A DNA stretch of 64,000 bases from Dehalococcoidia bacterium (GTDB lineage: Bacteria; Chloroflexota; Dehalococcoidia; Lucifugimonadales; UBA3495): assembly GCA_965203855.1 (NCBI GenBank), contig CBDBDN010000008.1, forward strand, positions 287,459 through 351,458, given 5' to 3'. The notes beneath the pieces are model-generated. The model ran no database searches. It saw only the letters and a list, made by a program, of their open reading frames with translations, and had not been told where the DNA came from. Positions within the stretch are counted from its first letter, which is position 1, and each line of letters opens with the position of its first letter. The position numbers were made by a program, and so were the translations under genes. Below, piece after piece: positions 45,995-64,000 of the stretch.

Positions 45995-46017
45995 CTGAAT
46001 TGAATGGAGGATTCGTA

Positions 46018-47776: not shown

Positions 47777-48799
47777 CTACTGCTCCTGCAACTCGCGGAC
47801 GATGCGGCGCAGCTGCGTCTGTTCCGCATCAGTAGGCGTCTGGATGGAGAAATGCATCTCGTCCACCAGGCCGCCGTAGCGCTCTTTGAACTTGCCGGGT
47901 ATCTCGTCATACTCGCCGATAATGGCGAAAGCGTCCAGCATCTCGTCGGATACCAGGCCGCTCATTTCATCCCATTTGCCTTCTAGCGAAAGGCGATGCA
48001 GCCGCTGCCCGATTTCCTCAAAGCCGTGGCATTCCAGCACGGGGAAATAGGTGCGGGTAGATGAATAGAAAGCGATGCGGCGGCGCGTTTCGGCGTCCAT
48101 CTGCCGGATGGCATCCCGGTTAGGGCCGGTAACGATAAAGCCGCCGCCCATTACGGATATGTCGCCGGCGCTGCGGCCGGCCCGGCGCGCGCCCTCGGCG
48201 ATGTTGGGCTGGACTACCTGGCGCACATATTCGGGCGAAACCAGGCTGTGCAACATCAAGCCGTCGCTGACTTCGCCGGCCACCAGGCAGTTGTAGGCGT
48301 TGACGGCGGCGGTGTACACCGGCGGCGGGTTGTAGTCGCTGGGGCCGGGGCTGAAAAAAGGCGTCATCAGCGAAAACTGGTAGAAATCGCCGGCGTATTC
48401 CAGACTGCTGCCGGTGTCCCAGCAGTTCCAGATGGCGCGCAGCGACTGCACATATTCCCGCAGGCGCGGCCCGGCGGAGCCGGTCCAGCGAGTAGAAAAG
48501 CGGCGCTCGTTATGGCCCTTGACTTGCGTCCCCAAGCCCAGCCGGAACCGCCCGGCGCTGCCGTCCTGCAAGTCGCGGGCAGTGTAGGCCACCACCATCG
48601 GCGAACGGGGGAAAGCGATGGCAACATGGGTTTCCAGGGTAACGCGGCCGGTGCTGGTGGCGGCCACGGCCAGGGGCAGGAAAGGGTCGTGCGCCGTTTC
48701 GTTGGTAGCAACGCCATCATAGCCGATGCTTTCGGCCCAGGCGGCTTCGGCGGCGACAGCGTTGAGGTCGCGGGATTTGAGGGAATAGACGACACGCAT
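47777..48799 (-). CDS. F420-dependent LLM-class (luciferase-like) oxidoreductase
   Basis: 340 aa. ESIGYDGVATNETAHDPFLPLAVAA and RFRLGLGTQVKGHNERRF. Confidence 0.75.
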   Translation of the reverse strand: MRVVYSLKSRDLNAVAAEAAWAESIGYDGVATNETAHDPFLPLAVAATSTGRVTLETHVAIAFPRSPMVVAYTARDLQDGSAGRFRLGLGTQVKGHNERRFSTRWTGSAGPRLREYVQSLRAIWNCWDTGSSLEYAGDFYQFSLMTPFFSPGPSDYNPPPVYTAAVNAYNCLVAGEVSDGLMLHSLVSPEYVRQVVQPNIAEGARRAGRSAGDISVMGGGFIVTGPNRDAIRQMDAETRRRIAFYSSTRTYFPVLECHGFEEIGQRLHRLSLEGKWDEMSGLVSDEMLDAFAIIGEYDEIPGKFKERYGGLVDEMHFSIQTPTDAEQTQLRRIVRELQEQ

Positions 48800-48843
48800 T
48801 TTGGGTTGGCTCCTTGGGGGTATCAGTCATTTGAGGGTATCAG

Positions 48844-49830
48844 TCATTCGTCGTCGGCGAATTCCTGGAGGAGAGGCGGGAATATGCGGGCAAACTTTTC
48901 CAGAGCATTCGCCATCCATTCAACCTGGTTCGCCCAGTCGGATTCATCATTCGGGTCGACGCTGTCATTGCCCAAAATCAGAACGCTGCCTTTGCCGCCG
49001 CTAGTAGGACGTCGCTGGAGCGGTTCCACAAATTCGCTCTGGGTGCCCTGCTGCAACCGGACGCTGTTATCATCATGTCCATCGCCGGACAGCGTCATTT
49101 TGATATGGATATTTTGCTGTGGTGCAAATTTAGTAGCTATTCGGAATGCCTCCACCTCAAGCCCCGACTTCCTGATACTGGTTTTGATATAGTGCCGGCC
49201 CTGGTGGAAATGGGGGCCTTGCATTCCGATTTTTACCGGGCTGTTTTGCGCCGTTAGATAGGCGTCAAGCTGTTCCCAGAACCGTTGGTTCTGCAAGTTG
49301 GCGTCGGTTAAGATGCCGTTGCCGCTTTTGGCAGCCTGACTAGTGGCACGAGTCCATTCGTTGGGTTTGGCAATGATGTTGAATTTGGGGGCGGCCGGCG
49401 ATTCGCCGATGCGCCAGAGTTCAATCTCCAGTCCGAAAAATCGGAACCGTTCATCGGTGATTTCGTTCAGCCAGTCCAGCGCGGCGCGGTGTTCGTCGGT
49501 AAAGGTTTGGGCTACCCAGATGATGGTTGCGGTTCGCAGGCCGGCGGCATAGGTAAGCAGCTGGCCCAGATGGTTGTGGTCGGTGCGTTCCAGCTGGTTT
49601 TCAATCAGCACCAGGGAATCATCCTGCATATCACGGCACAGGATGTCCGCGCGGAAAGGGCCGACGCGTTCCTCTTGCCCCTCAGTTTCCAGTTCCATGT
49701 TGAGGGCGTCGGACAGCACCGCCAAATTCTCCGGCTGCGCCAGCCACGGCGTAAAGTCCTGCGCTTCGGTAGTCCATACCGTCCGCAGGTCAACCCGTGC
49801 CAGGCGCGCCAGTTCGTTTGCAGTAGTCAT
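48844..49830 (-). CDS. DUF4268-like protein with an N-terminal PD-(D/E)xK nuclease-like module
   Basis: MTTANELARLARVDLRTVW..FTPWLAQPENL..GPFRADILCRD..LVLIENQLERTDHNHLGQLLTYAAGL. Its start ATG overlaps the upstream stop (ATGA). Confidence 0.6.
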   Translation of the reverse strand: MTTANELARLARVDLRTVWTTEAQDFTPWLAQPENLAVLSDALNMELETEGQEERVGPFRADILCRDMQDDSLVLIENQLERTDHNHLGQLLTYAAGLRTATIIWVAQTFTDEHRAALDWLNEITDERFRFFGLEIELWRIGESPAAPKFNIIAKPNEWTRATSQAAKSGNGILTDANLQNQRFWEQLDAYLTAQNSPVKIGMQGPHFHQGRHYIKTSIRKSGLEVEAFRIATKFAPQQNIHIKMTLSGDGHDDNSVRLQQGTQSEFVEPLQRRPTSGGKGSVLILGNDSVDPNDESDWANQVEWMANALEKFARIFPPLLQEFADDE

Positions 49831-50306
49831 ACTGCCATCCCCTTTGCCGGCGGCGCGGCCGGCATTGCATCCGCCGCATTGTACTCCATTCCGACCGTGC
49901 TGTAAGGCTCCAGGAACCAGAGATCGGAGACGCGCAGCATAGCCTGGCCCAGCCGGAACATGGCTGCCGCCAGCTCGTCGGGGCGGGCGCATTTCGTAAT
50001 CAGCTCGCCCTGGCGGTAGGTTACTGCCGACGCCGGATTGCAGACTTTGCCCAGCAGATACCGCTGCTTTGCCGAAAGTTCGCTGCCCCCGGTGCGCTGC
50101 CACAGGCAGCCCAGCGTCTCGCCGCCGTCGGTAAGGACATACTGCCCGTCATTTAGCGAGACGAAAATAACCCCCATCGTGCCATCGTCAAACATAAAAG
50201 GAGTGAACAGACGCGCGCCGCCGTCCGGCATCGGTTCCGGGTCAATCTCAAAAAGCGAGGCCAGCCCGGCGCACAGCGCAGATTGCAGGTCGGCAGTAAT
50301 CATCAA
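49827..50306 (-). CDS. DUF1828-like hypothetical protein
   Basis: 159 aa. RLFTPFMFDDGTMGVIFVSLNDGQYVLTDGGETLG resembles the DUF1828 pattern. AAGGAG lies 9 nt upstream of the start. Confidence 0.45.
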   Translation of the reverse strand: MMITADLQSALCAGLASLFEIDPEPMPDGGARLFTPFMFDDGTMGVIFVSLNDGQYVLTDGGETLGCLWQRTGGSELSAKQRYLLGKVCNPASAVTYRQGELITKCARPDELAAAMFRLGQAMLRVSDLWFLEPYSTVGMEYNAADAMPAAPPAKGMAV

Positions 50307-50321
50307 AGATGCTCCTTTTCG

Positions 50322-50756
50322 TTAACCCGGCGAGTGCATTACGCCGCGATGTTCAATGCGGGCTTCGGCGCAGAACTGCCGCCATACCGCAACCGGACGA
50401 TGCCAGGGTTCCGTAATATCGGCAGGATTATAGGCCATCCGGTCAGCATTTTCCGCAGTCCAATAGTGCTTGTGCTTTACGCCAACCCGCTCGCCCGTCG
50501 TCGGATTGGTATGCGGATGCCCAAAGTTGATAGCGTAAATTCGTCCCGCTGGCCGATGTACCAAAGTATAGGCCAACGCGAAACGCTGCGGACGATACCA
50601 GCCGGCTACGAAAAGCGGATAGCCGCCATCCGAAGCAACTTCAGCTCGAAACTCTACTGCGCCGATGTGCTGCGGGTTTGGTGCCCACGCTATGTTGCCC
50701 TCAATCCGCTTGCCGAAGTCGGCCAGGATGTCATCAAATTCCTGCTGCGTGAGCAT
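50322..50756 (-). CDS. Hypothetical 144-aa protein, translationally coupled to the MNT gene
   Basis: TAATG stop/start overlap at 50754-50758. I recognise no motifs (…GHPHTNPTTGERVGVKHKHYW…). Confidence 0.45.
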   Translation of the reverse strand: MLTQQEFDDILADFGKRIEGNIAWAPNPQHIGAVEFRAEVASDGGYPLFVAGWYRPQRFALAYTLVHRPAGRIYAINFGHPHTNPTTGERVGVKHKHYWTAENADRMAYNPADITEPWHRPVAVWRQFCAEARIEHRGVMHSPG

Positions 50757-51107
50757 TAGCCGACCGTCCTGTCATCCGAATCGGCCGACGACTGCCCGGC
50801 GCTGGCTGATTTGCGGTAGATGACCATTCCCCATTCGTCAATATGCTGCCGCAGCGGGGCGTAGCGAATGCTTTCATAAGCCTTGACATCGCAGCTCTGC
50901 GGTATGTCCAGATCCTCCAGATCCAGCGCCAGGCGCCCCAGCCGGTAATCGTCGACGATGCCGTGGGTTGCCAGGTCGTAGTCGGAGCGCGGCGTTGCTT
51001 TCCCGGTAGCGCGGGAGCCGAACAGCGTTACCGCCGTCAGCTCCGGGTAGGCGGCGAAAATCCGCCGCATTCGCTCCCAAGTTGCCGGCGGGATGTGGGG
51101 TTGTCAT
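50756..51107 (-). pseudogene. MNT-type nucleotidyltransferase (HI0073-like antitoxin), N-terminus frameshifted as sequenced
   Basis: LFGSRATGKATPRSDYDLA. In-frame sequence upstream of the track start reads QPHIPPATWER back to the HEPN stop. The ATG at 51107-51105 (an ATGA overlap) is +1 out of frame. Deleting one G of GGGG (51097-51100) gives MTTHIPPATWERMRRIF. Confidence 0.7.
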
Positions 51108-51520
51108 AATTCCAACAACTCCGCCCCCAGGCGGCGATACAACTCGCCCAGAACTGCCAGATAGCGACTGCTGATGTTGGCGATAACCGCCTCAAATTTG
51201 GCGAAATCGTAGGTATGCGCCGTCAGGTTGCGGTCAACCAGCATATCCGTTCAGACTTCGGCAGCGTCGATTAGCCGGGCGGCGTAGGCTTCGCGGATGA
51301 CACTGCGCGGCGTAACCTCGTCGAGCACAATGCCGCCGTATTCCAGCCGGTCTTTGAGCGTCAGCCAGGCCAGCCGAAAGGTGTACTGAAACCGCTGGAT
51401 GGCGCCTTCGCGTTCTAGTTCATTCAGTTCTGCAACTCCCGACTCCACCGCATCGCTGAGCAAAATGTAGGCGCGGGAAAAGTTGCGAAAGCGGTAATGC
51501 CAGCGCGCTGTTTCGGTCAT
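51104..51520 (-). pseudogene. HI0074-family nucleotidyltransferase substrate-binding (HEPN) protein with an in-frame TGA
   Basis: MTETARWHYRFRNFSRAY...GAIQRFQYTFRLAWLTLKDRL...LIDAAEV[TGA 51251-51253]TDMLVDRNLTAHTYDF. The stop sits where the family has a conserved Trp before the RNxxxHxY HEPN motif. Confidence 0.7.
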
Positions 51521-51546
51521 CGCAGCATCCTCCCGACGCCCGCGCT

Positions 51547-51909
51547 TTATGCTTCCGCCGGCGCGTGTTCGGCGTACAGCTGGTCGGTTTTGGCGGCCAT
51601 CACGAAGTCGTTGCGGTGCAGGTTGCGGATTTTGTGCGTCCACCAGGTAACGCCGACCCGGCCCCACTCAGTGGTTAGGCGGGGATGGTGCCCCTCCGAT
51701 TCGGCCAGCTCACCCAGCGCGCTGGTGAACTCCAGCGCCTGCACAAAGTTGCGGAACTGGAACTGCCGATCCAGCTTGGGGATGCCGGCTTCGTCCACCA
51801 GCGCCCAGTCATTCACGGCGGGATGCAGCGCGGCGATTTCGGCGTCGGTTACATGGGGCGAATCACGGCGGCAGGCGGTGCATTTTTCGCGGTACAGTTG
51901 CTCGGACAT
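51547..51909 (-). CDS. 4a-hydroxytetrahydrobiopterin dehydratase (PCD/DCoH)
   Basis: FRNFVQALEFTSALGELAESEGHHPRLTTEWGRVGVTWWTH. I prefer the start at MSEQLY. Confidence 0.8.
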   Translation of the reverse strand: MSEQLYREKCTACRRDSPHVTDAEIAALHPAVNDWALVDEAGIPKLDRQFQFRNFVQALEFTSALGELAESEGHHPRLTTEWGRVGVTWWTHKIRNLHRNDFVMAAKTDQLYAEHAPAEA

Positions 51910-52106
51910 TGCGGGGATACCTCCCGGGTTGCCTGGACGGCGGGTTGACGCCATTCTAGCATAGCGCCGCGCACCCGGCAGTTAGCAGCCGGCGGTTGAG
52001 CATTGCGCCCGCCTGCGGTATAGTTGCGGTGCGCCGCCCGGCGGCGTACCTGATACGGCGTATCCGATCTGGCGCGCCTGCCGATCTGGCGCACCCGGAG
52101 GACATA

Positions 52107-52922
52107 ATGATTTTCGGCGCAATCAGCAATTCCTGGCGCAATCAGCTGGACGCTAACGGGCTGGGCGACTTGATTGACGAGGCGCGCCGCCGGGGCTCCC
52201 GGCATATTGAGCTGCGCCAGACTTGCCTGGGCAATGCCGAATCGGGCGCGGGCGATGCTTGGCGCCCCAACCTGCCGGAGCTGTCCGACATCGTGGCCCG
52301 CTTTCCCGATTTGACCTTTGACCTGGCCGTTGCGCTGCCCTGCATCACCACCGATATTGACCCGGACGGCGATTTGTACCAGGCGCAGCTGGAGGCGGCC
52401 ATTCTGGTAGGCGGCGACCGGCCCCATTTGCGGACGGTTGACCCGGCGGCATCCGACGTGCCATGGGAAACGCCGGCTGATGTGGCCGAACCGGCCGCCC
52501 GCATTGCGCCGCTGGCCCGCGCCGCCGCCCGCCGGGGCGTCATATTCTCAATGGAAAACTCCGGGCAGCCGCTGCGTTCTATGGCGCTGCTGGTACAGGC
52601 CGCGCGCGCCCAGATGAATGACGATGATGCGCCCTATCTGGGCCTCTGCCCGGACCCGGCCAACCAGCTGCGCCGCCATCCCGACAGCCATCCCCTGGAC
52701 GAACTGGCGAACCTGCCGGCCGACTACATCAAAATCGTCCATTTCAAGCAGGCGCGCGACGGCATTGCTCTGGACAGCGTAGCCGACGGCGATTTGGACT
52801 GCCGCGCCATGCTGCGTATCCTGCAAGGCAAGGCTTACGATGGCCCGGCCATTATGGAAATCCCGTCATCCGACGCCGTTTTTGATAACCTGGCCGCCAG
52901 TTTCGCTTACCTCCAAGCATAG
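52107..52922 (+). CDS. Sugar phosphate isomerase/epimerase (xylose isomerase-like TIM barrel)
   Basis: GGAGGA SD, then MIFGAISNSWRNQL. HIELRQ, FSMENSG, IVHFKQ and IMEIPS match the usual metal-ligand strand pattern. Confidence 0.65.
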   Translation: MIFGAISNSWRNQLDANGLGDLIDEARRRGSRHIELRQTCLGNAESGAGDAWRPNLPELSDIVARFPDLTFDLAVALPCITTDIDPDGDLYQAQLEAAILVGGDRPHLRTVDPAASDVPWETPADVAEPAARIAPLARAAARRGVIFSMENSGQPLRSMALLVQAARAQMNDDDAPYLGLCPDPANQLRRHPDSHPLDELANLPADYIKIVHFKQARDGIALDSVADGDLDCRAMLRILQGKAYDGPAIMEIPSSDAVFDNLAASFAYLQA

Positions 52923-53000
52923 CCCACAGGAGATAGTCCACAAGGGATAGTCCACAGGGCGGCATCAATCGTTGCCCCGGCTCCGCTACAATACGATGCG

Positions 53001-54374
53001 ATGAACGACCACCGCGACTATACCGTATCCCTACACTACGACCGGCGGCTGTATCGGCAGGACATCGCCGGCTCCAAAGCCCACGCCGCAATGCTGGCGC
53101 AGCAGGGCATCATCTCGGCGGATGACGCCGAAAGCATCGCCGCCGGCCTGGACGCGGTGCAGGCGGAGATTGAACAGGGCGTCTTTCCGTGGGACGCCGC
53201 CTTGGAAGATCTGCATATGAACATTGAGCGCCGCCTTACCGAGCTGATTGGGCCGGCGGGCGCGCGGCTGCATACCGGCCGTTCCCGCAACGACCAGATT
53301 GCCTTGGATCTGCGGCTCTACACGCGGGAAGTCATTGCCGATACCATCGCCGGCCTGCGCCAAGTGCAGCGGGCATTGACCCAGCTGGCGGAACGCTACG
53401 CCGATGCGCTGATGCCCGGCTATACGCACTTGCAGCGCGCGCAGCCCGTCTTGTTCGCCCATCATCTGCTGGCCTATTTTGAGATGTTGCAGCGCGATGT
53501 CGGACGTTTCCAGGACTGCGCCGCCCGTATGGAGGTGCTGCCGCTGGGCAGCGGCGCCCTGGCCGGCGTACCGTATCCCACCGACCGCCGCGCCGTAGCG
53601 GATCTGCTGGGCTTTGCGGAAATCAGCGCCAACAGTATGGACGCCGTGGCCGACCGGGACTTTCTGGCCGAATACCACGCCGCCGCCGCCATCACGATGA
53701 TGCACTTTTCCCGCCTGTCCGAGGAAATCATCCTGTGGGCCAGCCGGGAGTTTGACTTCATTCGGCTGGCCGACGAGTTCACTACCGGCAGCAGCATTAT
53801 GCCGCAGAAGCGCAATCCCGATTTTGCCGAAATCGCCCGGGGCAAGACCGGGCGCGTGTACGGCCATCTGATGGGCATTTTGACGGTGCTGAAAGGGCTG
53901 CCGCTGACCTACAATCGGGATTTGCAAGAGGACAAAGAGGGGTTCTTTGACACCGTGGACACGTTGCGGGCTACGCTGGCGGTGTTCGCCGATCTGCTGG
54001 CCGGCATCACGCTGAACGCGGAACGCACCGCCGCGCTGGCCGGCGAAAGCTATATGCTGGCTACCGACCTGGCCGATTATCTGGTCGGCAAGGGCCTGCC
54101 GTTCCGGGAAGCGCACGGCATAATGCGCCGCCTGTGTCGGATTTGTGAGGAAACCGGCCAGTCGCTGGCGGAGCTGCCGCTGGCATCCTACCGGGAGTTT
54201 TCGCCGCACTTTGACGATGAGGTGTACGCCATCACCGCCGCCGCATCCGTGGCCGCGCGGGACAACCCCGGCGGCACCGCGCCTAACCGGGTAGCCGCAG
54301 CATTAGCCCGCGCCCGGCGTATCTTATCCGAAGCCGCGGCAAAGTCCGAAGCCGCGTCAAAGGACGGTTGCTGA
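53001..54374 (+). CDS. argH: Argininosuccinate lyase
   Basis: TGRSRNDQIALDLRLY, MPGYTHLQRAQP, and the signature GSSIMPQKRNPD. Confidence 0.95.
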   Translation: MNDHRDYTVSLHYDRRLYRQDIAGSKAHAAMLAQQGIISADDAESIAAGLDAVQAEIEQGVFPWDAALEDLHMNIERRLTELIGPAGARLHTGRSRNDQIALDLRLYTREVIADTIAGLRQVQRALTQLAERYADALMPGYTHLQRAQPVLFAHHLLAYFEMLQRDVGRFQDCAARMEVLPLGSGALAGVPYPTDRRAVADLLGFAEISANSMDAVADRDFLAEYHAAAAITMMHFSRLSEEIILWASREFDFIRLADEFTTGSSIMPQKRNPDFAEIARGKTGRVYGHLMGILTVLKGLPLTYNRDLQEDKEGFFDTVDTLRATLAVFADLLAGITLNAERTAALAGESYMLATDLADYLVGKGLPFREAHGIMRRLCRICEETGQSLAELPLASYREFSPHFDDEVYAITAAASVAARDNPGGTAPNRVAAALARARRILSEAAAKSEAASKDGC

Positions 54375-55099
54375 TGACGGGTATCGCTCCGGCGTCGGTA
54401 CAGATTGCGCCGTCGGTATTGGCGGCGGATTTCGGAATACTGGCCCGGCAGGTGCAGGAAGCCGAAGCCGCCGGCGCCGACCTGATCCATGTTGATGTGA
54501 TGGACGGCCGGTTCGTGCCTAATATCTCTTTTGGCGAAGTCGTGGTTGACGCCATCCGCAGCGCTACGGCATTGCCGCTGAACCTGCATCTGATGGTCCG
54601 CGAACCGGACCGGCTGCTGCCCGGCCTGGTCAAGGCGGCGTCCGACCAGGTGCTGGTGCACGCCGAAGCCTGTACGCATCTGCATCGCACGATCGGCCTG
54701 ATTAAAGAGATGGGCAGTCAGGCGGGCGTCGCCATTAATCCGGCGACGCCGATTGCGGCGGTAGAGGAAGCGCTGCCCGACCTGGACATTGTGATGGTAA
54801 TGACGGTGAACCCCGGTTTCGCCGGCCAGCCCTTTATCCCGTCAATGCTGGACAAATTGCGCCGCCTGCATCGGCTAATCGCTGAAAAGGGCTATCGGAC
54901 GCGGCTGGAAGTGGACGGCGGCATCAAGGCGGACGCCACGGCGCGCGATTCCGCCGCCGCCGGCGCCGACATACTGGTTGCGGGAACGGCAGTATTCAAC
55001 CGGGAGCGGACGGTTGCCGAAGCAATGGCGGCGCTGCGGGCCAGCATCGCCTTATCCGGTGCCAGCAGCGGTTCTGCCGCAGTTCCTATCGCAAATTGA
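54368..55099 (+). CDS. rpe: Ribulose-phosphate 3-epimerase
   Basis: IAPSVLAADF, IHVDVMDGRFVPNISFG, MTVNPGFAGQPF, EVDGGI. It overlaps the argH stop. Confidence 0.9.
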   Translation: MLMTGIAPASVQIAPSVLAADFGILARQVQEAEAAGADLIHVDVMDGRFVPNISFGEVVVDAIRSATALPLNLHLMVREPDRLLPGLVKAASDQVLVHAEACTHLHRTIGLIKEMGSQAGVAINPATPIAAVEEALPDLDIVMVMTVNPGFAGQPFIPSMLDKLRRLHRLIAEKGYRTRLEVDGGIKADATARDSAAAGADILVAGTAVFNRERTVAEAMAALRASIALSGASSGSAAVPIAN

Positions 55100-55103
55100 C
55101 CCG

Positions 55104-55125
55104 GCGCCGGCGCATTGGCCGGCGC
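55104..55125. terminator. Bidirectional hairpin between rpe and rpmB
   Basis: GCGCCGGC-GCATTG-GCCGGCGC, a perfect 8-bp GC stem. Confidence 0.4.
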
Positions 55126-55141
55126 GCTATGCTGCCGGCGC

Positions 55142-55357
55142 TTACCCGGCAGCGGCAATGGCGCGCGCTTTGCGGCCGCGCGGCGGCTTGTACATCGTCC
55201 GCAGGCAGCGGGAGCAAATCTTGACCCGCGTCGGCTTGCCGTCAATCGCCAAGGTCTGTTTATGGACATTGGCCTTCCAGCGGGTTTTGGTTTTCCGGTT
55301 GGAATGGCTGACATTGTTGCCGGTCATTCCGGCCTTTTTGCAAATCTGGCACTGCAT
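55142..55357 (-). CDS. rpmB: 50S ribosomal protein L28
   Basis: CQICKKAGMTGNNVSHSNRKTKTRWKANV, 71 aa. A minus-strand TGCTATAAT sits at 55390-55398. Confidence 0.9.
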   Translation of the reverse strand: MQCQICKKAGMTGNNVSHSNRKTKTRWKANVHKQTLAIDGKPTRVKICSRCLRTMYKPPRGRKARAIAAAG

Positions 55358-55522
55358 AATTCCGGTCTCGCACGGGTAGGTTGGACGGCATTATAGCATA
55401 CTGGACGGGATGGCGGTTGCGCCGGCGTTGGGGCTGCGGCATAATGCCGTCAAATCCGCCGCCGGGCGCGCCGCCGCCGCGTATTCGGAGCCCGCGCATC
55501 CCGGAGCCAAGAGGTTGATGCT

Positions 55523-56476
55523 ATGCCGCAAGCCGGAATACCGTCGGAACAGGAAGTGCTGGGCTGGTTTGACAGCCTGTCCAACTGGGGACGCTGGGGC
55601 GATGACGACGAGCTGGGCACCCCCAACCTGATTACCCCGCAGAAAACGCGCGCCGCCCTGAACACCGTAGAGGACGGCGTCTGCGTGTCGCTGTCGCGCA
55701 GCGTTACCTGGGAACCCGCCGCCGATGTACCCGCCCCGCCGGTGCATTATATGGTGGAAAGCGGCGAAGGCTGGGCTACCGGCGACAAAGTGTCGTCGCG
55801 GCCCTCCGCAGTAGCCACGGATTACATCGGGATGATTTTTCACGGCGTCTCCGTTACCCATGTGGACAGCCTGGCCCATTTTTTCTGGAACGGCAAAACT
55901 TACAACGGCAAGCCGGCGCATTTCGTCTCCACTAGCCTAGGCGCTACCGTCTGCTCCGTTGAGCAGGCGCACAAAGGCTTTATCACGCGCGGCGTCCTGG
56001 TAGATGTGCCCCTGGTGCGCGGCATCGACTGGGTGGAACGCGGCGAGGGCGTGATGCCCGACGACATTCGGGCCGCCGAGGCGCGCTGCGGCTTTCGGAT
56101 TGAGCCGGGCGATGCGCTGCTGGTGCGTACCGGGCAACTGCGCCGCCGCAATATAGAGGGGCCGATGCCGCGGGAAGCCGGCTCTACGGCTTGCCAGGCC
56201 GCTTGCCTGCCGCTGTTCAAAGAGCGCGACATTGCCGTCCTCGGCTCCGACACCGGCAACGACGTCAGCCCGCCCCAGTACGGCGGCCCGTTGACCAACC
56301 CCATACACCAGGTTTCCATCACGGCGATGGGGCTGTGGATTCTGGACAACGCCAACCTGGAGGATGTGGCCGCGGAATGCCGCCGGCGCAATCGCTGGAC
56401 TTTTATGGTCAGCATCAACCCGCTGCGCCTGCACAATACCACCGGGTCGCCAGTGAACCCGGTAGCCGTGTTTTAG
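55523..56476 (+). CDS. Cyclase family protein (kynurenine formamidase-like fold)
   Basis: 317 aa. HGVSVTHVDSLAHFFWNGKTYNG and GVLVDVP. Confidence 0.6.
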   Translation: MPQAGIPSEQEVLGWFDSLSNWGRWGDDDELGTPNLITPQKTRAALNTVEDGVCVSLSRSVTWEPAADVPAPPVHYMVESGEGWATGDKVSSRPSAVATDYIGMIFHGVSVTHVDSLAHFFWNGKTYNGKPAHFVSTSLGATVCSVEQAHKGFITRGVLVDVPLVRGIDWVERGEGVMPDDIRAAEARCGFRIEPGDALLVRTGQLRRRNIEGPMPREAGSTACQAACLPLFKERDIAVLGSDTGNDVSPPQYGGPLTNPIHQVSITAMGLWILDNANLEDVAAECRRRNRWTFMVSINPLRLHNTTGSPVNPVAVF

Positions 56477-56532
56477 TGGGTCTGAATTTTAGCGGGCCTA
56501 AAGACGGTGGGCCGAAAGATGACGGTGGCTTG

Positions 56533-58591
56533 ATGCTTGCGCTTCGGTTGCGGGGAGCCGCCGCCGGCATACGGGGCCGGTTCCCCTGGTACTGCGCCGC
56601 CGCCGTATGCCTGATTATCGTAGCGGCGGCGCTGCGGTTTTATGGATTGACTTACGACCTGGTCAACATTGATGAAGCGGTAGTCAGCGTCAACTCGCAG
56701 GGGTCTTTTACTGAAACTATCGCCAAAACGCGCACGAATAATTCTTCGCCGATACTGTATCCGGCGATGCTTTATGCGCTGCAAAAGATTGACAACTCGC
56801 CGTTTGCGATCCGCTTTATGCCGGCGCTGTCCGGCGTATTAACCGTTGCCGCAATTCTGCTGCTGCTGCCGCGAGCCGGCGTCCGCCGTGAAGCCGCGCT
56901 GCTGGCGGCGCTGTTGGCGACATTTGCCCCCGCCGCCATTATAGAAGCGCAGGGCGCAAGGGAATACGGCGTTGACGCGTTGTTGGCCGTCCTGCTGATT
57001 GCCGGGTTGCTGTGGTATCGTCGCAATGGACGCAAAGTTCTGCTGTGCGCCGCCCTGTTCATCGCGCCGCTGCTGCAATACGGGTTGGTTCTGTTCGGCG
57101 CCGCAGTAATCGGCGCCGGCCTGATTCTGCCCCCCCCCCCCCCCCCCCCCGACTTTGCCCTCCGGAAACCCGCCAGCCGCGCCGGAAACGGCTGGAAATG
57201 GCCGGAAATGGATTAAGGATTGGCTGCGCCGGCGCATCAGCATGGCCGGGCCGGCGGCGTTTTTCCTGGCCGGATGCGTAGCAAGTTATTTGATTACCGT
57301 GCGTCGCCAGCTGGAACTGGGCGGCTGGGGATGGGTGAATTACGGCTACGGGGGCGCCTATTATGCGGAGAATGAATATACCGTTGCGCTGCTGCTGGAG
57401 TTCGCATTTACGGCGCTGCGGAACCTGATTGACATACATTTGCCGCACATTGCGGCGTTGGCGATTCTGGGAGCGCTGGCATTGCTGCTGGCGCTGGCGG
57501 CGGCGCGGCGCTTGGGCTGGCGCGTTGACGAAACGGAAACGGAGCGCGGCGCAGCGGCATGGCGCGCGACGGCAATTCTGCTGGGTTTGGCGTTGGCGGC
57601 GGCCCTTCTAGCCGGAGCGCTCGCTTTGTATCCCGCCGATGTCCACCGGCTTACCTCATATATGTCCCCGATAATTCATATATTCGGGGGCTGCGTGCTG
57701 TACGCCGCCGCCTGTAGCGTGGCGGCGCCGCTGCGTTGGCGCCGGCCGGCGGCGCTCCGGACGCTAATTTGTGCTTTGTCTATATTGCTTGTAGTGGTTG
57801 GAGCCGCAGCGGTTAAGCCCAGCGTAATGTACAAGTATAGCGGGTATCAGGACAATTCGGTTACCGCCGCCAGTTTTAGAAAATTTCTAGCCGAATCTAC
57901 TGCTGCGGATGATGTCGTTTATACGCCGGGCAGCCTTGCGGCGATCAACGATTTCTATGACCGGCATCACCGGACGGGAAAGCCGGACAACCACATTTAC
58001 GGCAACGAACTATGCTGGGCTGAGGGTGATATTGGAAACTGTTTCCGGGAGCTGTCCAATGTGATAACGACGCGTGGTGATAATCCGGGCAATGTATGGC
58101 TGCTGCATTTCAGTCAAACGCTGTCCGAACCGCTGCTGCGTTGGAGCGAACCGGACGATATAGGCCATGTTGTGAACCGTCCCTTCGTGAATCTGTACCG
58201 CCTGGAATACGACGGGCTGATGACGAATATCCGACGGGAATGGCTGGCCGAATATCAGCCGCTGCTGGCGGGCGGGCCGGCAGCGCACGGGCCTTTTGAG
58301 GTCTATCTTAATGACGGCCAGCTTGCCTACGACCGGGCGCCGTGCCGGCCGGCGGATGCGAACCCGACCTTCTTGCTGCACATTTTCCCGGTTGATCCAA
58401 ATGCGCTGCCGGAGCAATGGCGATCCGATGGGTACGAAAACCGGGATTTCAACTTTTTGGAGCAGGGCGGCGCGCTGCTGGAAAATCGCTGCCTGGTATC
58501 GGTCGCCTTGCCAGATTACGACATCGCCAGCATCCACACCGGGCAATACAGCAACGCCGGCCGGATTTGGGCAGTGGAGTTTGCGCCATAG
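56533..58591 (+). CDS. GT-C fold membrane glycosyltransferase (GT39/ArnT-like), split into two ORFs by a poly-C tract
   Basis: RFYGLTYDLVNIDEAVVSVNS has the first-loop DE motif, and multiple TM helices follow. ORF 56191..57216 (likely start 56533) and ORF 57155..58591 differ by one frame across the C21 tract. With C20 or C23 they fuse into about 686 aa. Confidence 0.6.
57130..57150 (+). repeat. Homopolymeric C21 tract inside the coding sequence
   Basis: 21 consecutive C residues, read as PPPPPPP in the upstream frame. Confidence 0.99.
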
Positions 58592-58595
58592 GGGT

Positions 58596-58622
58596 GGATT
58601 CCGGCTTTCGCCGGAATGACGG
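58596..58622. repeat. Solo repeat hairpin just after the glycosyltransferase stop
   Basis: GGATTCCGGC-TTTC-GCCGGAATGACGG. Confidence 0.9.
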
Positions 58623-58802
58623 AAAATAAACTACCCAATTGGAAACATTGCCGGGATGCCGCCGGCCGGTTGCCCATTGCGGCGTCTTGCCCTAAACTTA
58701 CGCTGGACGGATTGGCGACGGGATGGAGTCGATTCCATCTCGCCGCAAGTCGGCATCACGCCGCAGCGCGAACACAAACTTATCGCAACAGGAGGCTTGC
58801 CG

Positions 58803-60129
58803 ATGCCCCTGCCAACGCCATTGCAAGGTATCCGCGTCGTTGATTTCACCTGGGTGCGAGCCGGCCCCTGGGCCGCCCGCTGGATGGGCACCCTGGGCGC
58901 CGATGTCATCAAAGTGGAATGGCCGCTGAACCTGGACACCCTCCGCCAGAACCGCTTTACGGTGCCGCCCGGCGTCGAGCCCGGCCCCAATTCTACCGGC
59001 CAGTTCGCCGACACCAACGCCAACAAGCGCGGCATCAGCGTCAACACCCGCACCGCCGCCGGCCTGGAGCTGGTCAAACGGCTGATTTCGGTGTCCGACA
59101 TCGTCATTGAGAACTTCAGCAGCCGCATTATGCGCCGCTGGGGGCTGGGCTATGACGAGCTGCGGAAAATCCGCCCCGACATTATCTATGTCTCTATGGC
59201 CGGTTTCGGGCAGACGGGACGGCATCACTGGTACGGCACGATGGGGCCGGCGGCGCAGGCGTTGAGCGGCCTTACCCATCTGTCCGGGCTGCCCGGCAAG
59301 CCGCCGGCCGGCTGGGGTTGGTCTTACCTGGACGATACCGGCGGAATGTACGGCGCAATGTGCGCGCTGACCGCCCTGCGCCACCGCTCGGCCACCGGCC
59401 AGGGGCAGCACGTCGACCTGTCGCAGATGATTACCGGCATCACGCTTACCGGCCCGGCGCTGCTGGACAAAACCGTCAACGGGCGGGCGGCGCGCCGGGA
59501 AGGTTTCCCGCCGGGCAACCCGCACCGTGTGGCCCGGCGCTGAGGTAGTCAACAACTATCGCGGCCCCATCGCCGCGCCGCACAACGCTTATCGCACCGC
59601 GCCCGGCGGCTACAACGACTGGATTGTCATTGCCTGCCTCTCCGACGACGAATGGCTGAACCTGCGCGGCCTGATGGGCCGTCCCGCCTGGGCCGACGCG
59701 CGGTTTGACACTATCGCCGGGCGGCTGGAGCATCAGGACGAAATGGACGCCGGCATCGAGGAATGGACGCTAACTCTGGACAAGTACGAACTTACCAAAC
59801 GGTGCCAGATGTGCGAAATCCGGGCGATGGCGGTGCAAAGCAGCCAGGATCGGGTAGATAACGACCCCCAACTGCGCCATCGCGAAATGTATGTTCCGAT
59901 GGAGCATCCCATGCTGGGCCCCTGGAAGTTCCAGAACGCCCCGTTCCAGATGTCCAAATCGCCGGCCCGTATGTCCGGCCCGCCGCCAATGATTGGGCAG
60001 CACAACCGGGAAGTGCTGGAGGATTTGCTGGGCGTAACCCACGACGATCTGTTGGACGGCTACGAAAACGGCGTTTTCTGGCCCAACACAATGGACAAGT
60101 TCCCCTATATTGAGGAGGCGCTGGTATGA
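58803..60129 (+). pseudogene. Family III CoA-transferase (CaiB/BaiF), disrupted as sequenced by a +1 frameshift near 59519-59521
   Basis: AGGAGG SD, then MPLPTPLQGIRVVDFTWVRAGPWAARWMGTLGADVIKVE. The frame changes between ...REGFPPGN (ORF 58656..59543) and TVWPGAEVVNNYRGPIAAPHNAY (ORF 59527..60129). Deleting one C of AACCCG restores the family GNR motif (PPGNRTVWPG). Confidence 0.8.
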
Positions 60130-61472
60130 CAACTGCCGCCAACAATGGCATTAACAGCGCCGGCGCCGCCGGCCAACTGCCGGAGGACGGAGTTGACCGC
60201 GGCGGCGCGCGTCCCGCCGATTACAGCCGCCCCGGGCCGCTCAACGGGCTGCGCGTCCTGGAAATCTGCGACGAAAAAGGCCAGTTCTGCGGCAAGCTGC
60301 TGGCCGACCTGGGTGCCGACCTCATCAAAATTGAACCGCCCGGCGGCGAACCCTGCCGCAGTTTCGGCCCCTTCCTGGACGACATCCCCCACCGGGAGCG
60401 CAGCCTCTCGTTCTGGCACTACAACACCTCCAAGCGGGGCATTACGCTGAACCTGGAAACGACGCAAGGGCAGGACATAATGCGCCGCCTGGCGGCCACT
60501 GCGGACATCGTGCTGGAAAGCCGGCCGCCCGGCTATCTGGAGTCGCTGAGGCTGGACTACGCGCCGCTCTCCGCCGACCACCCCGGCCTGATTATGTGCT
60601 CGTTGACGCCATACGGACAGACCGGCCCCTGGCGCGACTACATCAGCAGCGACATTACGCAGCTGGCCGGCGGCGGGCAGATGGCGTCGTCGGGCTACGA
60701 CGAAATTGATGTCCCCAATGCGCCGCCCATTGCGCCCGGCGGCGGCAACGCCTGGCACATCGGCGCCCATTACGCCTACATCGGAATGATGGCCGCGCTG
60801 CACTACCGCTTTCTGTCCGGCGCGGGCCAGTACATTGACGCATCCATCCATGAGGCGTGCGCCTTGACTACCGAAGGCGCCATCGCTATTTATCTGTCCA
60901 CCGGGGAAGTAGTGCAGCGGCACACCGGACGCCACGCCGCCCCCGATATGTCGCCGGCCATCCAGTTCCCCACCGGAGACGGCGGCTGGCTGAACACCAC
61001 CCGTTCCGGCACCAACCTGACGCCGCAGCGTCTCAAGATGCTGGCCGAATGGTTTGAACAGTCGGGAATGGCCGACGACCTTGCCGATGCGCGCTACCAG
61101 AATCCGGAAGTCATCGCCGCCGAAAACGACCACATCGTCCAGGTGATGAAAGACTTCTTTATGAGTTCCACGCTGGATGACGCCTTTCACGGCGGCCAGC
61201 AGCGTGATTTCCCATGGGGCGCCATTCGCAGTATGGACGAAATCGTCGGGGATGCCCACCTGCAAGACCGGGGATTCTTTACGGAAGTAGCCCATCCCGA
61301 ACTGGGGCGGACTTTCACCTACCCCGGCGGCGCCGCCATCTACAACGGGTCGCCCTGGCGCATCAGCCGCCGCGCCCCCCTGATTGGCGAACACAACACG
61401 GAGATACTGCAAGGCGAGCTGGGCCTGACCAACGGCGCAATGCTCCTGCTGGCCGAGGGCGGGGTGATTTAG
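60126..61472 (+). CDS. Family III CoA-transferase (CaiB/BaiF), paralog
   Basis: LNGLRVLEICDEKGQFCGKLLADLGADLIKIEPPGG, 448 aa. It overlaps the upstream stop (ATGA). Confidence 0.8.
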   Translation: MTTAANNGINSAGAAGQLPEDGVDRGGARPADYSRPGPLNGLRVLEICDEKGQFCGKLLADLGADLIKIEPPGGEPCRSFGPFLDDIPHRERSLSFWHYNTSKRGITLNLETTQGQDIMRRLAATADIVLESRPPGYLESLRLDYAPLSADHPGLIMCSLTPYGQTGPWRDYISSDITQLAGGGQMASSGYDEIDVPNAPPIAPGGGNAWHIGAHYAYIGMMAALHYRFLSGAGQYIDASIHEACALTTEGAIAIYLSTGEVVQRHTGRHAAPDMSPAIQFPTGDGGWLNTTRSGTNLTPQRLKMLAEWFEQSGMADDLADARYQNPEVIAAENDHIVQVMKDFFMSSTLDDAFHGGQQRDFPWGAIRSMDEIVGDAHLQDRGFFTEVAHPELGRTFTYPGGAAIYNGSPWRISRRAPLIGEHNTEILQGELGLTNGAMLLLAEGGVI

Positions 61473-62060
61473 ATGGCCGACGCGCGATACACGCCGCTTT
61501 ACTCAATACCGGAGTGCGCCCGGTATCTGGGTTTGCCCGCGTCCACGCTGCGGCGCTGGGTCACGGCCGGCCCGTCCAGCTCCGACTGCGTCGCCAACGC
61601 CCCGGAGCCGCTGATCTGCCCAGCCGGCAAGCCGCCGGCGGCGTTATCTTTCATCAATCTGGCCGAGTTGCACATCTTGTCGAGCTTGCGCCGGAACCGC
61701 AAACTTCCGTTGCGGGAAGTGCTAACGGAGATAGACCATATCGACCCACAACGGAAATACCGTAACCCGCTAGCGTGGTCCCAATTCGGGTATGTAAGCC
61801 CCGAAGCGCGATTGGAGTATGATAAGGACGGCTTTGCACAGCGGTTTTACCCGCCCATTCGCGGCCTGCCCGACTCCAGAATCGTCGTGATTGACCCTGC
61901 TGTTGCCTTCGGGCGTCCCGTTATCGCCGGTTCCGGTGTGCGGACTGCCGTAATCGCCAGCCGCATTAATGCCGGAGAGTCACTATACGATGTGGCAGAC
62001 GACTACCTGCTGCAACCGCACCAGGTACAAGATGCCTTACACTACGAACTGGCCGCTTGA
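61473..62060 (+). CDS. DUF433 antitoxin-like protein with an N-terminal HTH (VapB45-like)
   Basis: YSIPECARYLGLPASTLRRWV forms the HTH. The C-terminal DUF433 region is IDPAVAFGRPVIAGSGVRTAVIASRINAGESLYDVADDYLLQPHQVQDALHYE. Confidence 0.7.
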   Translation: MADARYTPLYSIPECARYLGLPASTLRRWVTAGPSSSDCVANAPEPLICPAGKPPAALSFINLAELHILSSLRRNRKLPLREVLTEIDHIDPQRKYRNPLAWSQFGYVSPEARLEYDKDGFAQRFYPPIRGLPDSRIVVIDPAVAFGRPVIAGSGVRTAVIASRINAGESLYDVADDYLLQPHQVQDALHYELAA

Positions 62061-62496
62061 CATCGTATTTTTCTCCGATGAGAACTTGGGGCGGCAAGCT
62101 TTCCCATCGCCGTTGCTGGACGCCGGCGTGCCGTTGCACGTTTTCCACACCATCTTTGCCAGTGGCATTGCGGACACTGATTGGATCCCGATAGTTGCTC
62201 AACGCGGATGGATTGCGCTTACTACCGATGCGCGGCTGCGGTATAAGCCAAGTGAGCGGGACGCTATAATGGAGGCTAATCTGGGTGTCATTGTACTGGT
62301 CAGCGGAAACACGCATCTGGAAAAAGCCACAATTTTCCTGCAATCGCGCAACCGCATCATCAGTTTCATCCGCTACCACGAATCGCCCTTTATCGCCCGT
62401 TTATACCATATGAGTACGAGTTTGCTTACATCAACGGCGCGCTGGAGGCTCGGAATGCAGCCGGATTTCCGCCGATTCCGGGGTTCCCCAAGCTGA
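62032..62496 (+). CDS. DUF5615-type PIN-like toxin candidate (VapC45-like)
   Basis: LDIVFFSDENLGRQAFPSPLLDAGVPLHVF...DWIPIVAQRGWIALTTDARL. The ATG at 62032 overlaps the antitoxin 3' end. The last ~30 codons overlap coding-looking sequence in another frame, so the 3' end is uncertain. Confidence 0.55.
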   Translation: MPYTTNWPLDIVFFSDENLGRQAFPSPLLDAGVPLHVFHTIFASGIADTDWIPIVAQRGWIALTTDARLRYKPSERDAIMEANLGVIVLVSGNTHLEKATIFLQSRNRIISFIRYHESPFIARLYHMSTSLLTSTARWRLGMQPDFRRFRGSPS

Positions 62497-62543
62497 CGCA
62501 GCAATACCGCTCCTGCCGGCTGTTTCCCCTGTTTCAGAACCGG

Positions 62544-63077
62544 GTGATGAATCGCAGCCGGCCCGACCGGGCGGAATATCTACGGCGTTTGGGATTGCCA
62601 GGGGACGCCGATGCCATATCAGAGCTGGCGGCGTCCGGCGGGCCGCGGCGCACGGATACTTACCAGGTGTTTCCCGCCATCATTCCCGACGCCGGCGACG
62701 GCCGGTTCATCTATCGCTGCCTGCTGCACGGCTTGCGCCATGCCGGCCCCGATGCCGTTAAGCGCAGCAAAACATTGCAGCAGGGGGAATCCCTCTACTT
62801 GGCGTCCGACTTGGGTAATCCGACGGCGGAGCTGGCGGTCAAGGTAGCAACCGGGGATGGCCAGCATATCGGCTGGATACCGCGCTACCTCGTTGATGAT
62901 TTGCGGCAGGACGGGAAATGGTTAGTTGCGGACGCCGAGGCTACGGTAGTACAAGTCAACCTGAACGGGCCATTAAGCCACCGCCTGCTGATCGACTTCA
63001 GCGGCAAACTCCCGCTCGACTTCAGCATGGAAAACTTGCCGCAGTACCGGCCCATCGCTACGCCGGCGGGCTACTGA
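62544..63077 (+). CDS. HIRAN domain protein, apparently 5'-truncated or frameshifted
   Basis: The HIRAN pattern is GESLYLASDLGNPTAELAVKVATGDGQHIGWIPRYLVDDL. Protein-like sequence continues upstream in frame from about 62409 without any start codon. Confidence 0.55.
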   Translation: MMNRSRPDRAEYLRRLGLPGDADAISELAASGGPRRTDTYQVFPAIIPDAGDGRFIYRCLLHGLRHAGPDAVKRSKTLQQGESLYLASDLGNPTAELAVKVATGDGQHIGWIPRYLVDDLRQDGKWLVADAEATVVQVNLNGPLSHRLLIDFSGKLPLDFSMENLPQYRPIATPAGY

Positions 63078-63112
63078 TTGAGACGACTGATTGATTGGGC
63101 GCAAGCTGCCCG

Positions 63113-63625
63113 CTACCCCGCCGGCGCCTCATGCGCCCAGCTAAAACCCTCCGCCGGTTCGTCAATCAGGCGCCATTGGGGCAGCATAAAGCCCTCCTCT
63201 ACCGGCTGGAAGGCCACCTCCACCCGCTTGCCGATGCCGACTTTCTCCTCTTGCTCCATATTGAAATCGCCGTCCACCAGGTTGCCGGTGATGCGTAGGC
63301 CATCGTGTTCGCCGGGCTCCCCGCGCTGCTCGTCCAGCTCTACCAGCACGATGGCGAAAGGCGTCAGGTCCCGGAAGCTGGGAATGACGGTATGCGCCAC
63401 TATCTGATAAGAGTAGATGATGCCTTTGCCGGAAACCTGCTGCCACTCCCAGTTAAGGGAAGCGCACCAGGGACAGCCCGGCCCCGGCTCGCCGCGCAGC
63501 CGCCCGCAGTCAACGCACTTTTTCACCACCAGCCGACCCTCGCCCGCCGCCTCAAAGTAGCCCTTGTACTCCGAATCGTTGTCCGGGATGCTCAAAGTGA
63601 TGCCCCGGTAGGTATAGTTTGCCAT
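63113..63625 (-). CDS. DUF35 OB-fold/zinc-ribbon protein (thiolase-associated)
   Basis: MANYTYRG...KKCVDCGRLRGEPGPGCPWC (rubredoxin-like zinc ribbon), then the OB fold GKGIIYSYQIV. It lies downstream of a thiolase-like gene, the usual pairing. The track start 63733 lies inside repeats. Confidence 0.7.
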   Translation of the reverse strand: MANYTYRGITLSIPDNDSEYKGYFEAAGEGRLVVKKCVDCGRLRGEPGPGCPWCASLNWEWQQVSGKGIIYSYQIVAHTVIPSFRDLTPFAIVLVELDEQRGEPGEHDGLRITGNLVDGDFNMEQEEKVGIGKRVEVAFQPVEEGFMLPQWRLIDEPAEGFSWAHEAPAG

Positions 63626-63643
63626 CGTCGCTGCTCCACGGCC

Positions 63644-63810
63644 GGATTCCGGCTTGCGCCGGAATGACGCAAAGGTAATTTGGAATGACGCAAGGGGAAT
63701 TGGAATGACGCAAGGGGAATTGGAATGACGCAAGGGGAATTGGAATGACGCAAGGGGAATTGGAATAACGCCGGAGAGATTGGAATGACGCCAGCGGAAT
63801 CGGAATGACC
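63644..63810. repeat. Repeat hairpin plus four perfect and three degenerate copies of a 20-nt unit
   Basis: GGATTCCGGC-TTGC-GCCGGAATGACG (63644-63669). TGGAATGACGCAAGGGGAAT occurs four times (63681-63760), followed by degenerate copies up to about 63810. Confidence 0.95.
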
Positions 63811-63827
63811 CCTGAGAAATAGGGCGG

Positions 63828-64000
63828 TCAGCTCAGCACACTCCCCATAATCAGAGAACTGCCCACTGCCGGCGTTCCCCAGCCCATGTTCATGCTGATT
63901 TTCGCGTCGCGCACCTGGCGGCAGCCCCCCTCGCTGTAATCGTAGCTATGCTCCCCATCGGCGGCGCCGGGACAGTAGTCGTCCACCGTCCCCCGCAGCT
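63828..64000 (-). CDS. Thiolase-like protein, C-terminal end (gene runs off the right edge)
   Basis: Reverse translation ends ...ISMNMGWGTPAVGSSLIMGSVLS* with the stop at 63828-63830. The adjacent DUF35 partner supports a thiolase/SCP-x-type call. Confidence 0.5.
   Translation of the reverse strand, partial: LRGTVDDYCPGAADGEHSYDYSEGGCRQVRDAKISMNMGWGTPAVGSSLIMGSVLS

Follow-up and report, generated by a model that had tools for sequence, protein, structure and literature searches.

An uninterrupted run of 21 cytosines (C21) splits the gene of a predicted membrane glycosyltransferase in a 64,000-nt stretch of DNA from a Dehalococcoidia bacterium (assembly GCA_965203855.1, contig CBDBDN010000008.1). 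This tract, the gene in which it lies, and the proposal of an initial annotation made from the sequence alone, namely that the tract acts as a slipped-strand switch, are the subject of this study. The whole stretch is referred to as the window, and all positions are counted from its first letter. Direct counting confirmed the 21 C reported for 57130-57150, and the tract is a real feature of the window, with the flanks ...GATTCTG upstream and GACTTTGCC... downstream. Among the other homopolymers in the 64 kb, 22 were 6 nt and three were 7 nt long, and none was longer. From the base composition (61.9% G+C), about 3e-6 runs of 21 C would be expected.

The interrupted gene and its predicted product

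The upstream open reading frame (ORF; 56191..57216) contains the ATG at 56533, at which both the family match and the orthologue start. In this frame, the tract is read as PPPPPPP and is followed by 21 further codons and a stop. The downstream ORF (57155..58591) lies in the +1 frame relative to the upstream ORF. A hidden Markov model (HMM) of the protein family matched the window in two consecutive parts, with profile positions 1-202 in frame 0 (56533-57141) and 198-661 in frame +1 (57155-58582). Apart from the tract, the gene contains no other stops, and each half matched the family profile over its full length. When the tract length was altered in silico, C20 and C23 resulted in proteins of 685 and 686 aa, respectively, while C18, C21, and C24 gave 226-228 aa (227 aa for C21) and C19 and C22 gave 248-249 aa. 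A change in length alone toggles between full and truncated product in an otherwise intact ORF, as expected of a contingency locus. Both the ORF layout of the initial annotation, including the start at 56533, and its prediction of a fusion at 20 or 23 C were thus borne out. The features are summarized in Table 1. The 10-nt repeat listed there could be a second slippage-prone, frame-changing element, as its unit is not a multiple of three.

Table 1. Features of the interrupted gene, in window coordinates
Feature	Position	Strand	Basis
GT-C-fold membrane glycosyltransferase gene, frameshifted at the tract (685 aa if C20)	56533..58591	+	family HMM, orthologue P0001, AlphaFold2, Foldseek
Upstream fragment, 227 codons followed by TAA; first membrane helices and loop motif with invariant D47-E48	56533..57216	+	
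C21 homopolymer, proposed slipped-strand switch; poly-Pro in a low-confidence loop; C20/C23 would be ON, C21 OFF	57130..57150	+	
10-nt unit GCCGGAAATG repeated in tandem (3.1 copies), also within the loop-coding stretch, 30 nt past the poly-C tract	57181..57211	+	Tandem Repeats Finder
Downstream fragment in the +1 frame; remaining membrane helices and soluble C-terminal domain of about 240 aa	57155..58591	+	ORF, HMM, AlphaFold2

Relatives of the fused protein were sought among 5.8 billion proteins, and 246 were found. The majority (>100) consist of one polypeptide of 620-1000 aa, and their alignments extend over 95-100% of the fused query. The closest relative, P0001, is a continuous protein of 681 aa with 90% identity over 100% of the query. 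At the position of the tract, homologues carry LLPP(S/A) followed by a variable stretch. The first methionine of the called downstream product (57242) is not conserved among them and, therefore, the downstream ORF is not an evolved separate gene. The initial annotation had described one gene split by the tract and had named orthologues in two separate genes as the observation that would speak against it; the orthologues examined were single, and the existence of two truly separate genes was ruled out. Selection for polyproline at the protein level as the sole cause of the tract was also rejected, because no more than PP or PPS is found in the homologues at this site, and such a long stretch of pure CCC codons is a feature of the DNA.

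A model of the fused protein was generated with AlphaFold2 from an alignment of 20 family sequences and reached a predicted local distance difference test score (pLDDT) of 74 and a predicted template modelling score of 0.70. In a Foldseek comparison with the PDB, all 13 matches with E<=1e-3 were GT-C enzymes. ArnT was the top match, and ALG12, ALG9, STT3, AglB, Pmt4, DPY19, and AftB were also found (probability 1.00, E 1e-5 to 1e-3, target-normalised TM-score 0.4-0.6). The model contains a polytopic domain with the fold of solved GT-C enzymes. The NIDEA motif highlighted in the initial annotation holds the residues D47-E48, which are invariant in the 20-sequence alignment (37-90% identity to the query) and form a conserved acidic motif in the first loop, presumably on the extracytoplasmic side. 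At the sequence level, the fused protein scored below the thresholds of Pfam PMT (PF02366; 20.4 bits, cut-off 22.7), Pfam PMT_2 (PF13231; 17.1 bits, cut-off 26.1), and NCBIfam TIGR03663 (Agl23; 24.5 bits, cut-off 126), and a PDB sequence search with the family profile gave no match. Judging from the model, the protein appears to resemble ArnT/PMT-type enzymes in its working; by its sequence scores, it is not a member of the PMT, PMT_2, ArnT/GT83, or GT39 families. The earlier description as an ArnT/GT39-like enzyme consequently stood with respect to the fold, but not with respect to the curated family thresholds. From the fold, a lipid-linked (polyprenyl-phosphate) sugar donor and transfer at the outer face of the membrane would be expected.

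The residues encoded by the tract and just after it (about 199-222) form a loop without secondary structure in the model (pLDDT <50, given specifically for residues 208-221). An Arg/Lys-rich stretch follows directly, which suggests a cytoplasmic location of this loop. As the last membrane helix of the model ends near residue 436, the soluble C-terminal part comprises about 240 aa; the soluble domain assigned downstream by the initial annotation is present, but its size of about 330 aa was overestimated. The C-terminal part closes with one 'FLLHxxPxD...C...TGQY...W' module, of which other family members carry up to four. This module showed weak fold matches to CrdA and to the soluble domain of PmoD (Foldseek probability 0.8-0.97).

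The tract site in close relatives and across the family

Evidence from public sequencing runs was obtained from assembled Logan contigs. The runs X1 and X2 originate from the sample in which the window sequence is present, and X3-X6 are labelled sponge metagenome. In close relatives, the orthologous site was found in different states, as the initial annotation had suggested examining. The contig of P0001 (L001; 94-96% DNA identity to the window) reads CTG-CCGCCCC-GACTTT and is in frame. The second relative, L002 (91-94% DNA identity), carries C10-A-C20 and is split like the window gene; it has one 10-nt unit fewer at the repeat corresponding to 57181-57211 and a tract longer by 10 nt, so that its net frame equals that of the window. 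The orthologous tract is polymorphic among close relatives, with CCGCCCC, C21, and C10-A-C20 occurring at 91-96% DNA identity. In X3 and X4, which contain a strain about 95% identical to the window, the contigs end at the tract.

In comparisons of the window, L001, and L002, the ratio of non-synonymous to synonymous substitution rates (dN/dS) was 0.19-0.22 before the tract and 0.39-0.43 after it, and neither part contained an internal stop. These comparisons include two split alleles (window and L002) against each other. Based on these substitution patterns, both halves of the window gene are under purifying selection, and the values, together with the lack of stops, fit poorly to a long-dead pseudogene.

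A scan of one genome per GTDB species yielded 77 family loci (L003-L079), all from metagenome-assembled genomes (MAGs). These were labelled as Dehalococcoidia, Caldilineaceae, Latescibacteria, Entotheonella, Gemmatimonadota, Nitrospirales, Gammaproteobacteria/Pseudomonadales, Spirochaetia, Bryobacterales, and Marinacidobacterium, and the nearest family matches came from MAGs labelled Dehalococcoidia. Many genomes hold several loci of the family (up to five or more), some of which lie in tandem. In a library of 1.84 billion proteins, 975 cluster representatives were assigned to the family at E<=1e-30. All complete members found came from MAGs, whose labels span at least 10 bacterial lineages. 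A scan of metagenomes of the Joint Genome Institute (JGI) with the fused protein returned no relative, and a JGI scan with the family alignment returned only 14 distant relatives of the N-terminal domain, none of them with tracts. Exact-sequence look-ups of P0002 and P0234 gave no record.

By anchoring on the conserved QYGLVLFG motif, the tract site was located in 95 distinct copies with MAG labels from at least six phyla. In 83 copies, the longest C run at this site measured 0-7 nt; the remaining 12 had runs of 9-21 nt, with lengths that include 9, 9, 11, 13, 14, 15, 18, 18, 20, 21, and 21 nt (the 20 being the C20 part of the L002 tract). The flanks of the long tracts are invariably TTCT(A/G)-Cn-GA(C/G)TTT, and the MAG labels of these copies comprise Dehalococcoidia, Latescibacteria, Entotheonella, Gemmatimonadota, and Bryobacterales. 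Overall, G/C runs of at least 9 nt occurred 25 times in 267 kb of family DNA compared to four times in 368 kb of flanking DNA (p=1e-6). The window thus holds an intragenic repeat that exceeds the length threshold for a contingency locus and belongs to a class enriched over the background.

According to the family HMM frames, six copies are split exactly at the tract, specifically the window (C21), L002, L004 (C21), two copies in L075 (both C18), and L031 (C15). In frame are L056 (C14), L035 (C13), L041 (C11), L074 (C9), and L032 (C9). Furthermore, several of the cluster representatives start right past the tract position, and the three that could be traced proved to be further split copies with C10 (L094), C14 (L095), and C18 (L096). 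L094 is an independent metagenome scaffold, while L095 and L096 are long-contig assemblies. OFF states, that is out-of-frame tracts, are not limited to lengths that are difficult to sequence, since L094 is OFF at C10. In all nine tract-broken copies, the addition or removal of one C restores an ORF of 519-874 aa. That every OFF copy is one step from ON was dismissed as evidence because arithmetic makes it so for every length that is out of frame; information comes only from a lack of other lesions. In seven of the nine copies, the restored ORF spans the whole family profile.

Additional tracts were observed in and near family genes. In Dehalococcoidia-labelled paralogues, a tract of the form (A/G)GTAC-G9..G13-TAT follows directly after the N-terminal peptide RRALxARYQNIST (L011 2948-2956, L015 2974-2985, L024 2971-2981, L026 2913-2921, L027 2949-2957, L028 2973-2981, L039 3426-3434, L052 2966-2974, and L064 745-757). 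The peptide is in frame with the gene in L011, L026, and L028, while in L027, L039, and L052 it is out of frame or its start codon is gone. Depending on the copy, this second tract may be coding or part of the 5' leader. A third position, poly-G in a variable loop near profile position 380, was seen in MAGs labelled Latescibacteria and Spirochaetia (L036 4064-4074, G11; L040 4114-4136, G23), and the frame of L040 appears to be locally changed around the tract. L054 547-2570 encodes a polytopic membrane protein of another type, which also bears the TGQY module at its C-terminus and has no Pfam match. This gene adjoins a family copy and is broken by C17 (1226-1242); C18 would give 674 aa. Near another family copy, L045 contains G24 (7420-7443; C24 on the minus strand) at the end of a minus-strand ORF that, judged by eye, resembles the end of a Wzx-type polysaccharide flippase. 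Finally, an identical C12 tract, GCATATGTA-C12-GCAAAATC, lies at L035 1868-1879 and L037 1868-1879, in each case about 1.1 kb upstream of a family copy; the two copies differ and belong to one Entotheonella-labelled MAG, and the tract is outside the family matches.

Tract length and competing explanations

Length heterogeneity within a sample was observed at the paralogous tract of L056, whose C14 is short enough for 31-mers to include both flanks. Contigs from four runs of one host sample carried C13, C14, and C15 with perfect flanks. The depths over the four runs were 67, 39, 23, and 62 for C13, 43, 24, 16, and 29 for C14, and 18, 15, 6, and 0 for C15; in run X11, for instance, 67, 43, and 18 were found. 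Of the three lengths, C14 keeps the gene in frame (ON), whereas C13 and C15 put it out of frame (OFF). The contig reaching the unique right flank had C15 in X13 and C14 in X19. The locus is a paralogue in another genome, and its heterogeneity is supportive, not proof.

Taken together with the findings above, the C21 tract of the window is probably a slipped-strand contingency locus that is in its OFF phase in this assembly. Slipped-strand mispairing during replication would add or remove C's, presumably at a high rate and reversibly. Tract lengths of 3k+2 (20, 23) would yield the full enzyme of 685 or 686 aa (ON), and all other lengths would lead to a translation stop 21 or 43 codons past the tract (OFF). 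The tract would sit in a variable, probably cytoplasmic loop that tolerates polyproline of any length, and the assembled 21 C would correspond to an OFF state one step from ON. As a result, cells of a population would differ randomly in making an envelope glycan modification. The glycan acted upon may be part of the cell surface seen by phages or by the host, either of which could be the selective agent. The slippage-prone nature of the tract claimed at the outset agrees with the three states in relatives, the recurrence in 12 of 95 copies, and the C13/C14/C15 mixture at the paralogous tract.

Several observations weigh against this reading. An extra C in the window at 59519, 2.4 kb from the tract, was proven to be a 1-nt homopolymer error: at 59517-59519, the window reads AACCCGCACC (CCC), whereas the contigs of X1, X2, X3, and X4 as well as L002 read AACCGCACC (CC). 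The error falsely splits a family III CoA-transferase gene (58656..59543 / 59527..60129), which is one gene of 441 aa in L002. With a proven 1-nt indel error nearby, the count of 21 is not certain, and the caution about homopolymer indels voiced in the initial annotation was justified. The contigs of X2 (depth 33) break at the tract, and an 892-nt left-flank contig of this run continues after ...GATTCTG with 21 G instead of 21 C (57129/57130), which probably reflects an artefact of sequencing or of the assembly graph at the tract. k-mers of many paralogues pile up on the window tract (depth of about 1000), and the tract length at the window locus is derived from assembled contigs. In the unbiased set, all six tracts of at least 15 nt were OFF and all five of C9-C14 were ON, a pattern that mis-measured tracts would also produce. 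At L056, the summed depth of the variants exceeds the depth of the locus, so copies or strains sharing the short flanks may contribute. Lastly, some tract frameshifts may be dead ends, since decayed and additionally damaged copies exist: the family match of L031 ends at profile position 537, the second copy in L075 shows a gap in the match before the C-terminal module, and L037 363-1281 is a decayed family copy with several frameshifts.

Part of these observations could be explained if a real tract had been mis-called by 1 nt, with the gene in frame (20 or 23 C) and constitutively expressed in most cells and the split merely an artefact of the consensus. The length dependence of the phase in the unbiased set is the main point for such a mis-measurement, and the false split of the neighbouring gene and the failure of the X2, X3, and X4 contigs at the tract point in the same direction. 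However, the difference at 59519 was the only one between the X1/X2 contigs and window 44001-64000, that is in 20 kb; homopolymer indel errors in this assembly are rare. A 2,364-nt contig of X1 (56259-58622; depth 2.7), the only read-derived contig that spans the window tract, matches the window without differences and likewise has exactly 21 C, and short k-mer contigs of separate runs hold the L004 tract with both flanks (TTCTA-C21-GA). The corrections needed in the six OFF copies were of both signs (-1 in three, +1 in three), unlike a systematic bias, and OFF states also occurred at C10 and C14, in the separate metagenome scaffold and a long-contig assembly. Under random phase, six OFF of six would still have a probability of about 9%. 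Even if the in-frame length prevailed, the strain differences and the mixture at L056 would indicate a slipping tract. On balance, we consider a mis-call as the whole explanation unlikely.

Another alternative is a non-adaptive hot spot, at which a Pro-Pro-Pro codon run was expanded by slippage and a redundant paralogue was permanently lost, the window gene then being a young pseudogene. Redundancy is plausible in a multi-copy family, clearly decayed copies such as that in L037 occur, the A that interrupts the L002 tract is as in a decaying repeat, and all long-tract copies of the unbiased set are OFF. Conversely, the tract is the sole lesion in seven of the nine tract-broken copies, the window and L002 halves show dN/dS well below 1 without stops, and in-frame and out-of-frame lengths occur together at L056. 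Moreover, many lineages carry long, uninterrupted tracts at one and the same site, and such tracts are nearly absent from flanking DNA. Permanent loss therefore seems improbable to us. The constraint on out-of-frame copies would also fit a gene whose frame is restored in decoding, by RNA polymerase slippage or ribosomal frameshifting, and which would be leaky rather than switched. RNA polymerase slips when the whole RNA-DNA hybrid is homopolymeric, as on long A/T runs in bacteria and endosymbionts, and the 21-nt tract is far longer than this hybrid. Such a rescue leaves the DNA length differences between strains and within a sample unexplained, and as a replacement for switching we regard it as quite improbable, although it is compatible with switching at the DNA level and both can coexist. 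A search for RNA runs returned only two runs of unknown kind.

Beyond the single locus, slipped-strand switching at the window tract may be one case of a cross-phylum contingency system that spans the multi-copy GT-C family and neighbouring envelope-glycan genes with similar tracts; we rate the chance of this as somewhat short of even. The family was found here almost only in host-associated MAGs, with sponge association shown only for the lineage of the window. In this system, slippage would act at up to three fixed loop positions (N-terminal poly-G, poly-C after the 'QYGLVLFG...LLPP' helix, and poly-G at about profile position 380), and surface glycan modifications would be randomly mixed in each symbiont population, with phages or host uptake as a possible selective pressure. 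The tract site could have spread with the gene by horizontal transfer or could have arisen repeatedly from a CCC-CCT-CCG proline run.

Relation to known systems and further observations

Intragenic poly-G/C contingency loci have been described in the lipooligosaccharide, capsule, and flagellin glycosylation genes of Campylobacter jejuni (PMC8355987, PMC3068675). As in C. jejuni, a G/C homopolymer lies inside a glycan-modifying coding region, slippage by one nt in either direction would shift the frame, and genomes hold several genes of this type. In Campylobacter, a low-GC pathogen, the tracts commonly measure about 8-11 nt and lie in genes of soluble enzymes. The window tract, in contrast, has 21 nt (up to 31 nt in a relative) and resides in the gene of a polytopic GT-C enzyme of an uncultured sponge-metagenome bacterium with 62% G+C. 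Phase-variable glycosyltransferases also include those of the Neisseria lgt genes and of Helicobacter pylori futA/futB (poly-C). Similarly, the Neisseria pgtA gene encodes a poly-G/poly-C phase-variable glycosyltransferase (PMC2193922). Likenesses are the position of the homopolymer, which lies within the 5' half of the glycosyltransferase gene, the ON/OFF variation of the surface glycan, which is proposed for the window gene, and the reading of in-frame C as polyproline. Unlike the window enzyme, these enzymes are cytoplasmic GT-A or GT-B proteins of host-restricted pathogens, and there is no sequence relationship.

The initial annotation had considered such a switch as undescribed for this kind of high-GC organism. 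This was overstated, as homopolymer phase variation in high-GC bacteria has been reported for Bordetella pertussis (PMC1891110) and the Mycobacterium tuberculosis complex (PMC10334774). In these organisms, G/C homopolymer slippage switches genes in high-GC genomes. Most of their tracts are shorter than that of the window, at about 7 to 15 nt. The genes concerned differ from the window gene, and those reports do not deal with a multi-copy GT-C family across phyla.

With ArnT (GT83; 5f15/5ezm), PMT (GT39; Pmt4 9i5k), AftB (9dlh), and STT3/AglB, the window enzyme shares the multi-helix membrane fold and the acidic pair of the first loop. It differs from ArnT and PMT in its sequence scores below the family thresholds and in the C-terminal soluble 'TGQY' repeat modules (1-4 copies), which are foreign to both. 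In Salmonella, gtrABC mediates phase-variable O-antigen glucosylation, and its switch is epigenetic, with Dam methylation and OxyR acting at the promoter. The candidate would resemble gtrABC in being an ON/OFF membrane glycosyltransferase (GtrC) that modifies an envelope glycan on the outer side; unlike in gtrABC, the candidate switch is a repeat in the coding region and not an epigenetic promoter. Poly(A) tracts in insect endosymbionts are reportedly rescued by polymerase infidelity, as Tamas and colleagues are said to have described in 2008. In both cases, long homopolymers break otherwise intact symbiont genes that are under selection. The endosymbiont tracts, however, consist of A/T in AT-rich reduced genomes and are rescued at the transcript level, whereas the DNA lengths at the window site differ among strains.

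In the literature, no paper was found that ties sponge symbionts or Chloroflexi to phase variation, contingency loci, or this GT-C family. The mechanism is classical; the differences from the known systems are the polytopic GT-C family without a curated name, the tracts of 21-31 nt, and their occurrence in uncultured bacteria from samples labelled as sponge or another host. Phase variation by repeat tracts counts as typical of pathogens adapted to a host. If the proposed switching holds true, uncultured and presumably mutualistic sponge-associated bacteria of several phyla use it on a private membrane glycosyltransferase family, which would offer a testable handle on symbiont surface variation against phages and a bacteria-feeding host. 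In the annotation of MAGs, genes of this kind will appear as pseudogenes or as split genes, as is already seen in the public cluster representatives that begin just past the tract. In addition, tract states could serve as population markers.

Some further features of the window were recorded. The segment 26001-28000 has a G+C content of 51.5% compared to about 62% elsewhere, and the sole Rfam match in the window was one tRNA (12432-12520). Many intergenic arrays built around a shared core of roughly 20 nt (CCGTCATTCCGGC / GCCGGAATGACGG), in part forming hairpins, look like a very abundant repeat of the repetitive extragenic palindromic type. They were located at 2393-2446, 3481-3774, 5650-5745, 10629-10954, 30798-30848, 35377-35489, 58596-58630, and 63661-63809, one of them directly 3' of the stop codon of the glycosyltransferase gene. 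In X1 and X2, these arrays reached k-mer depths >1000, and contigs linked copies that lie 5-10 kb apart.

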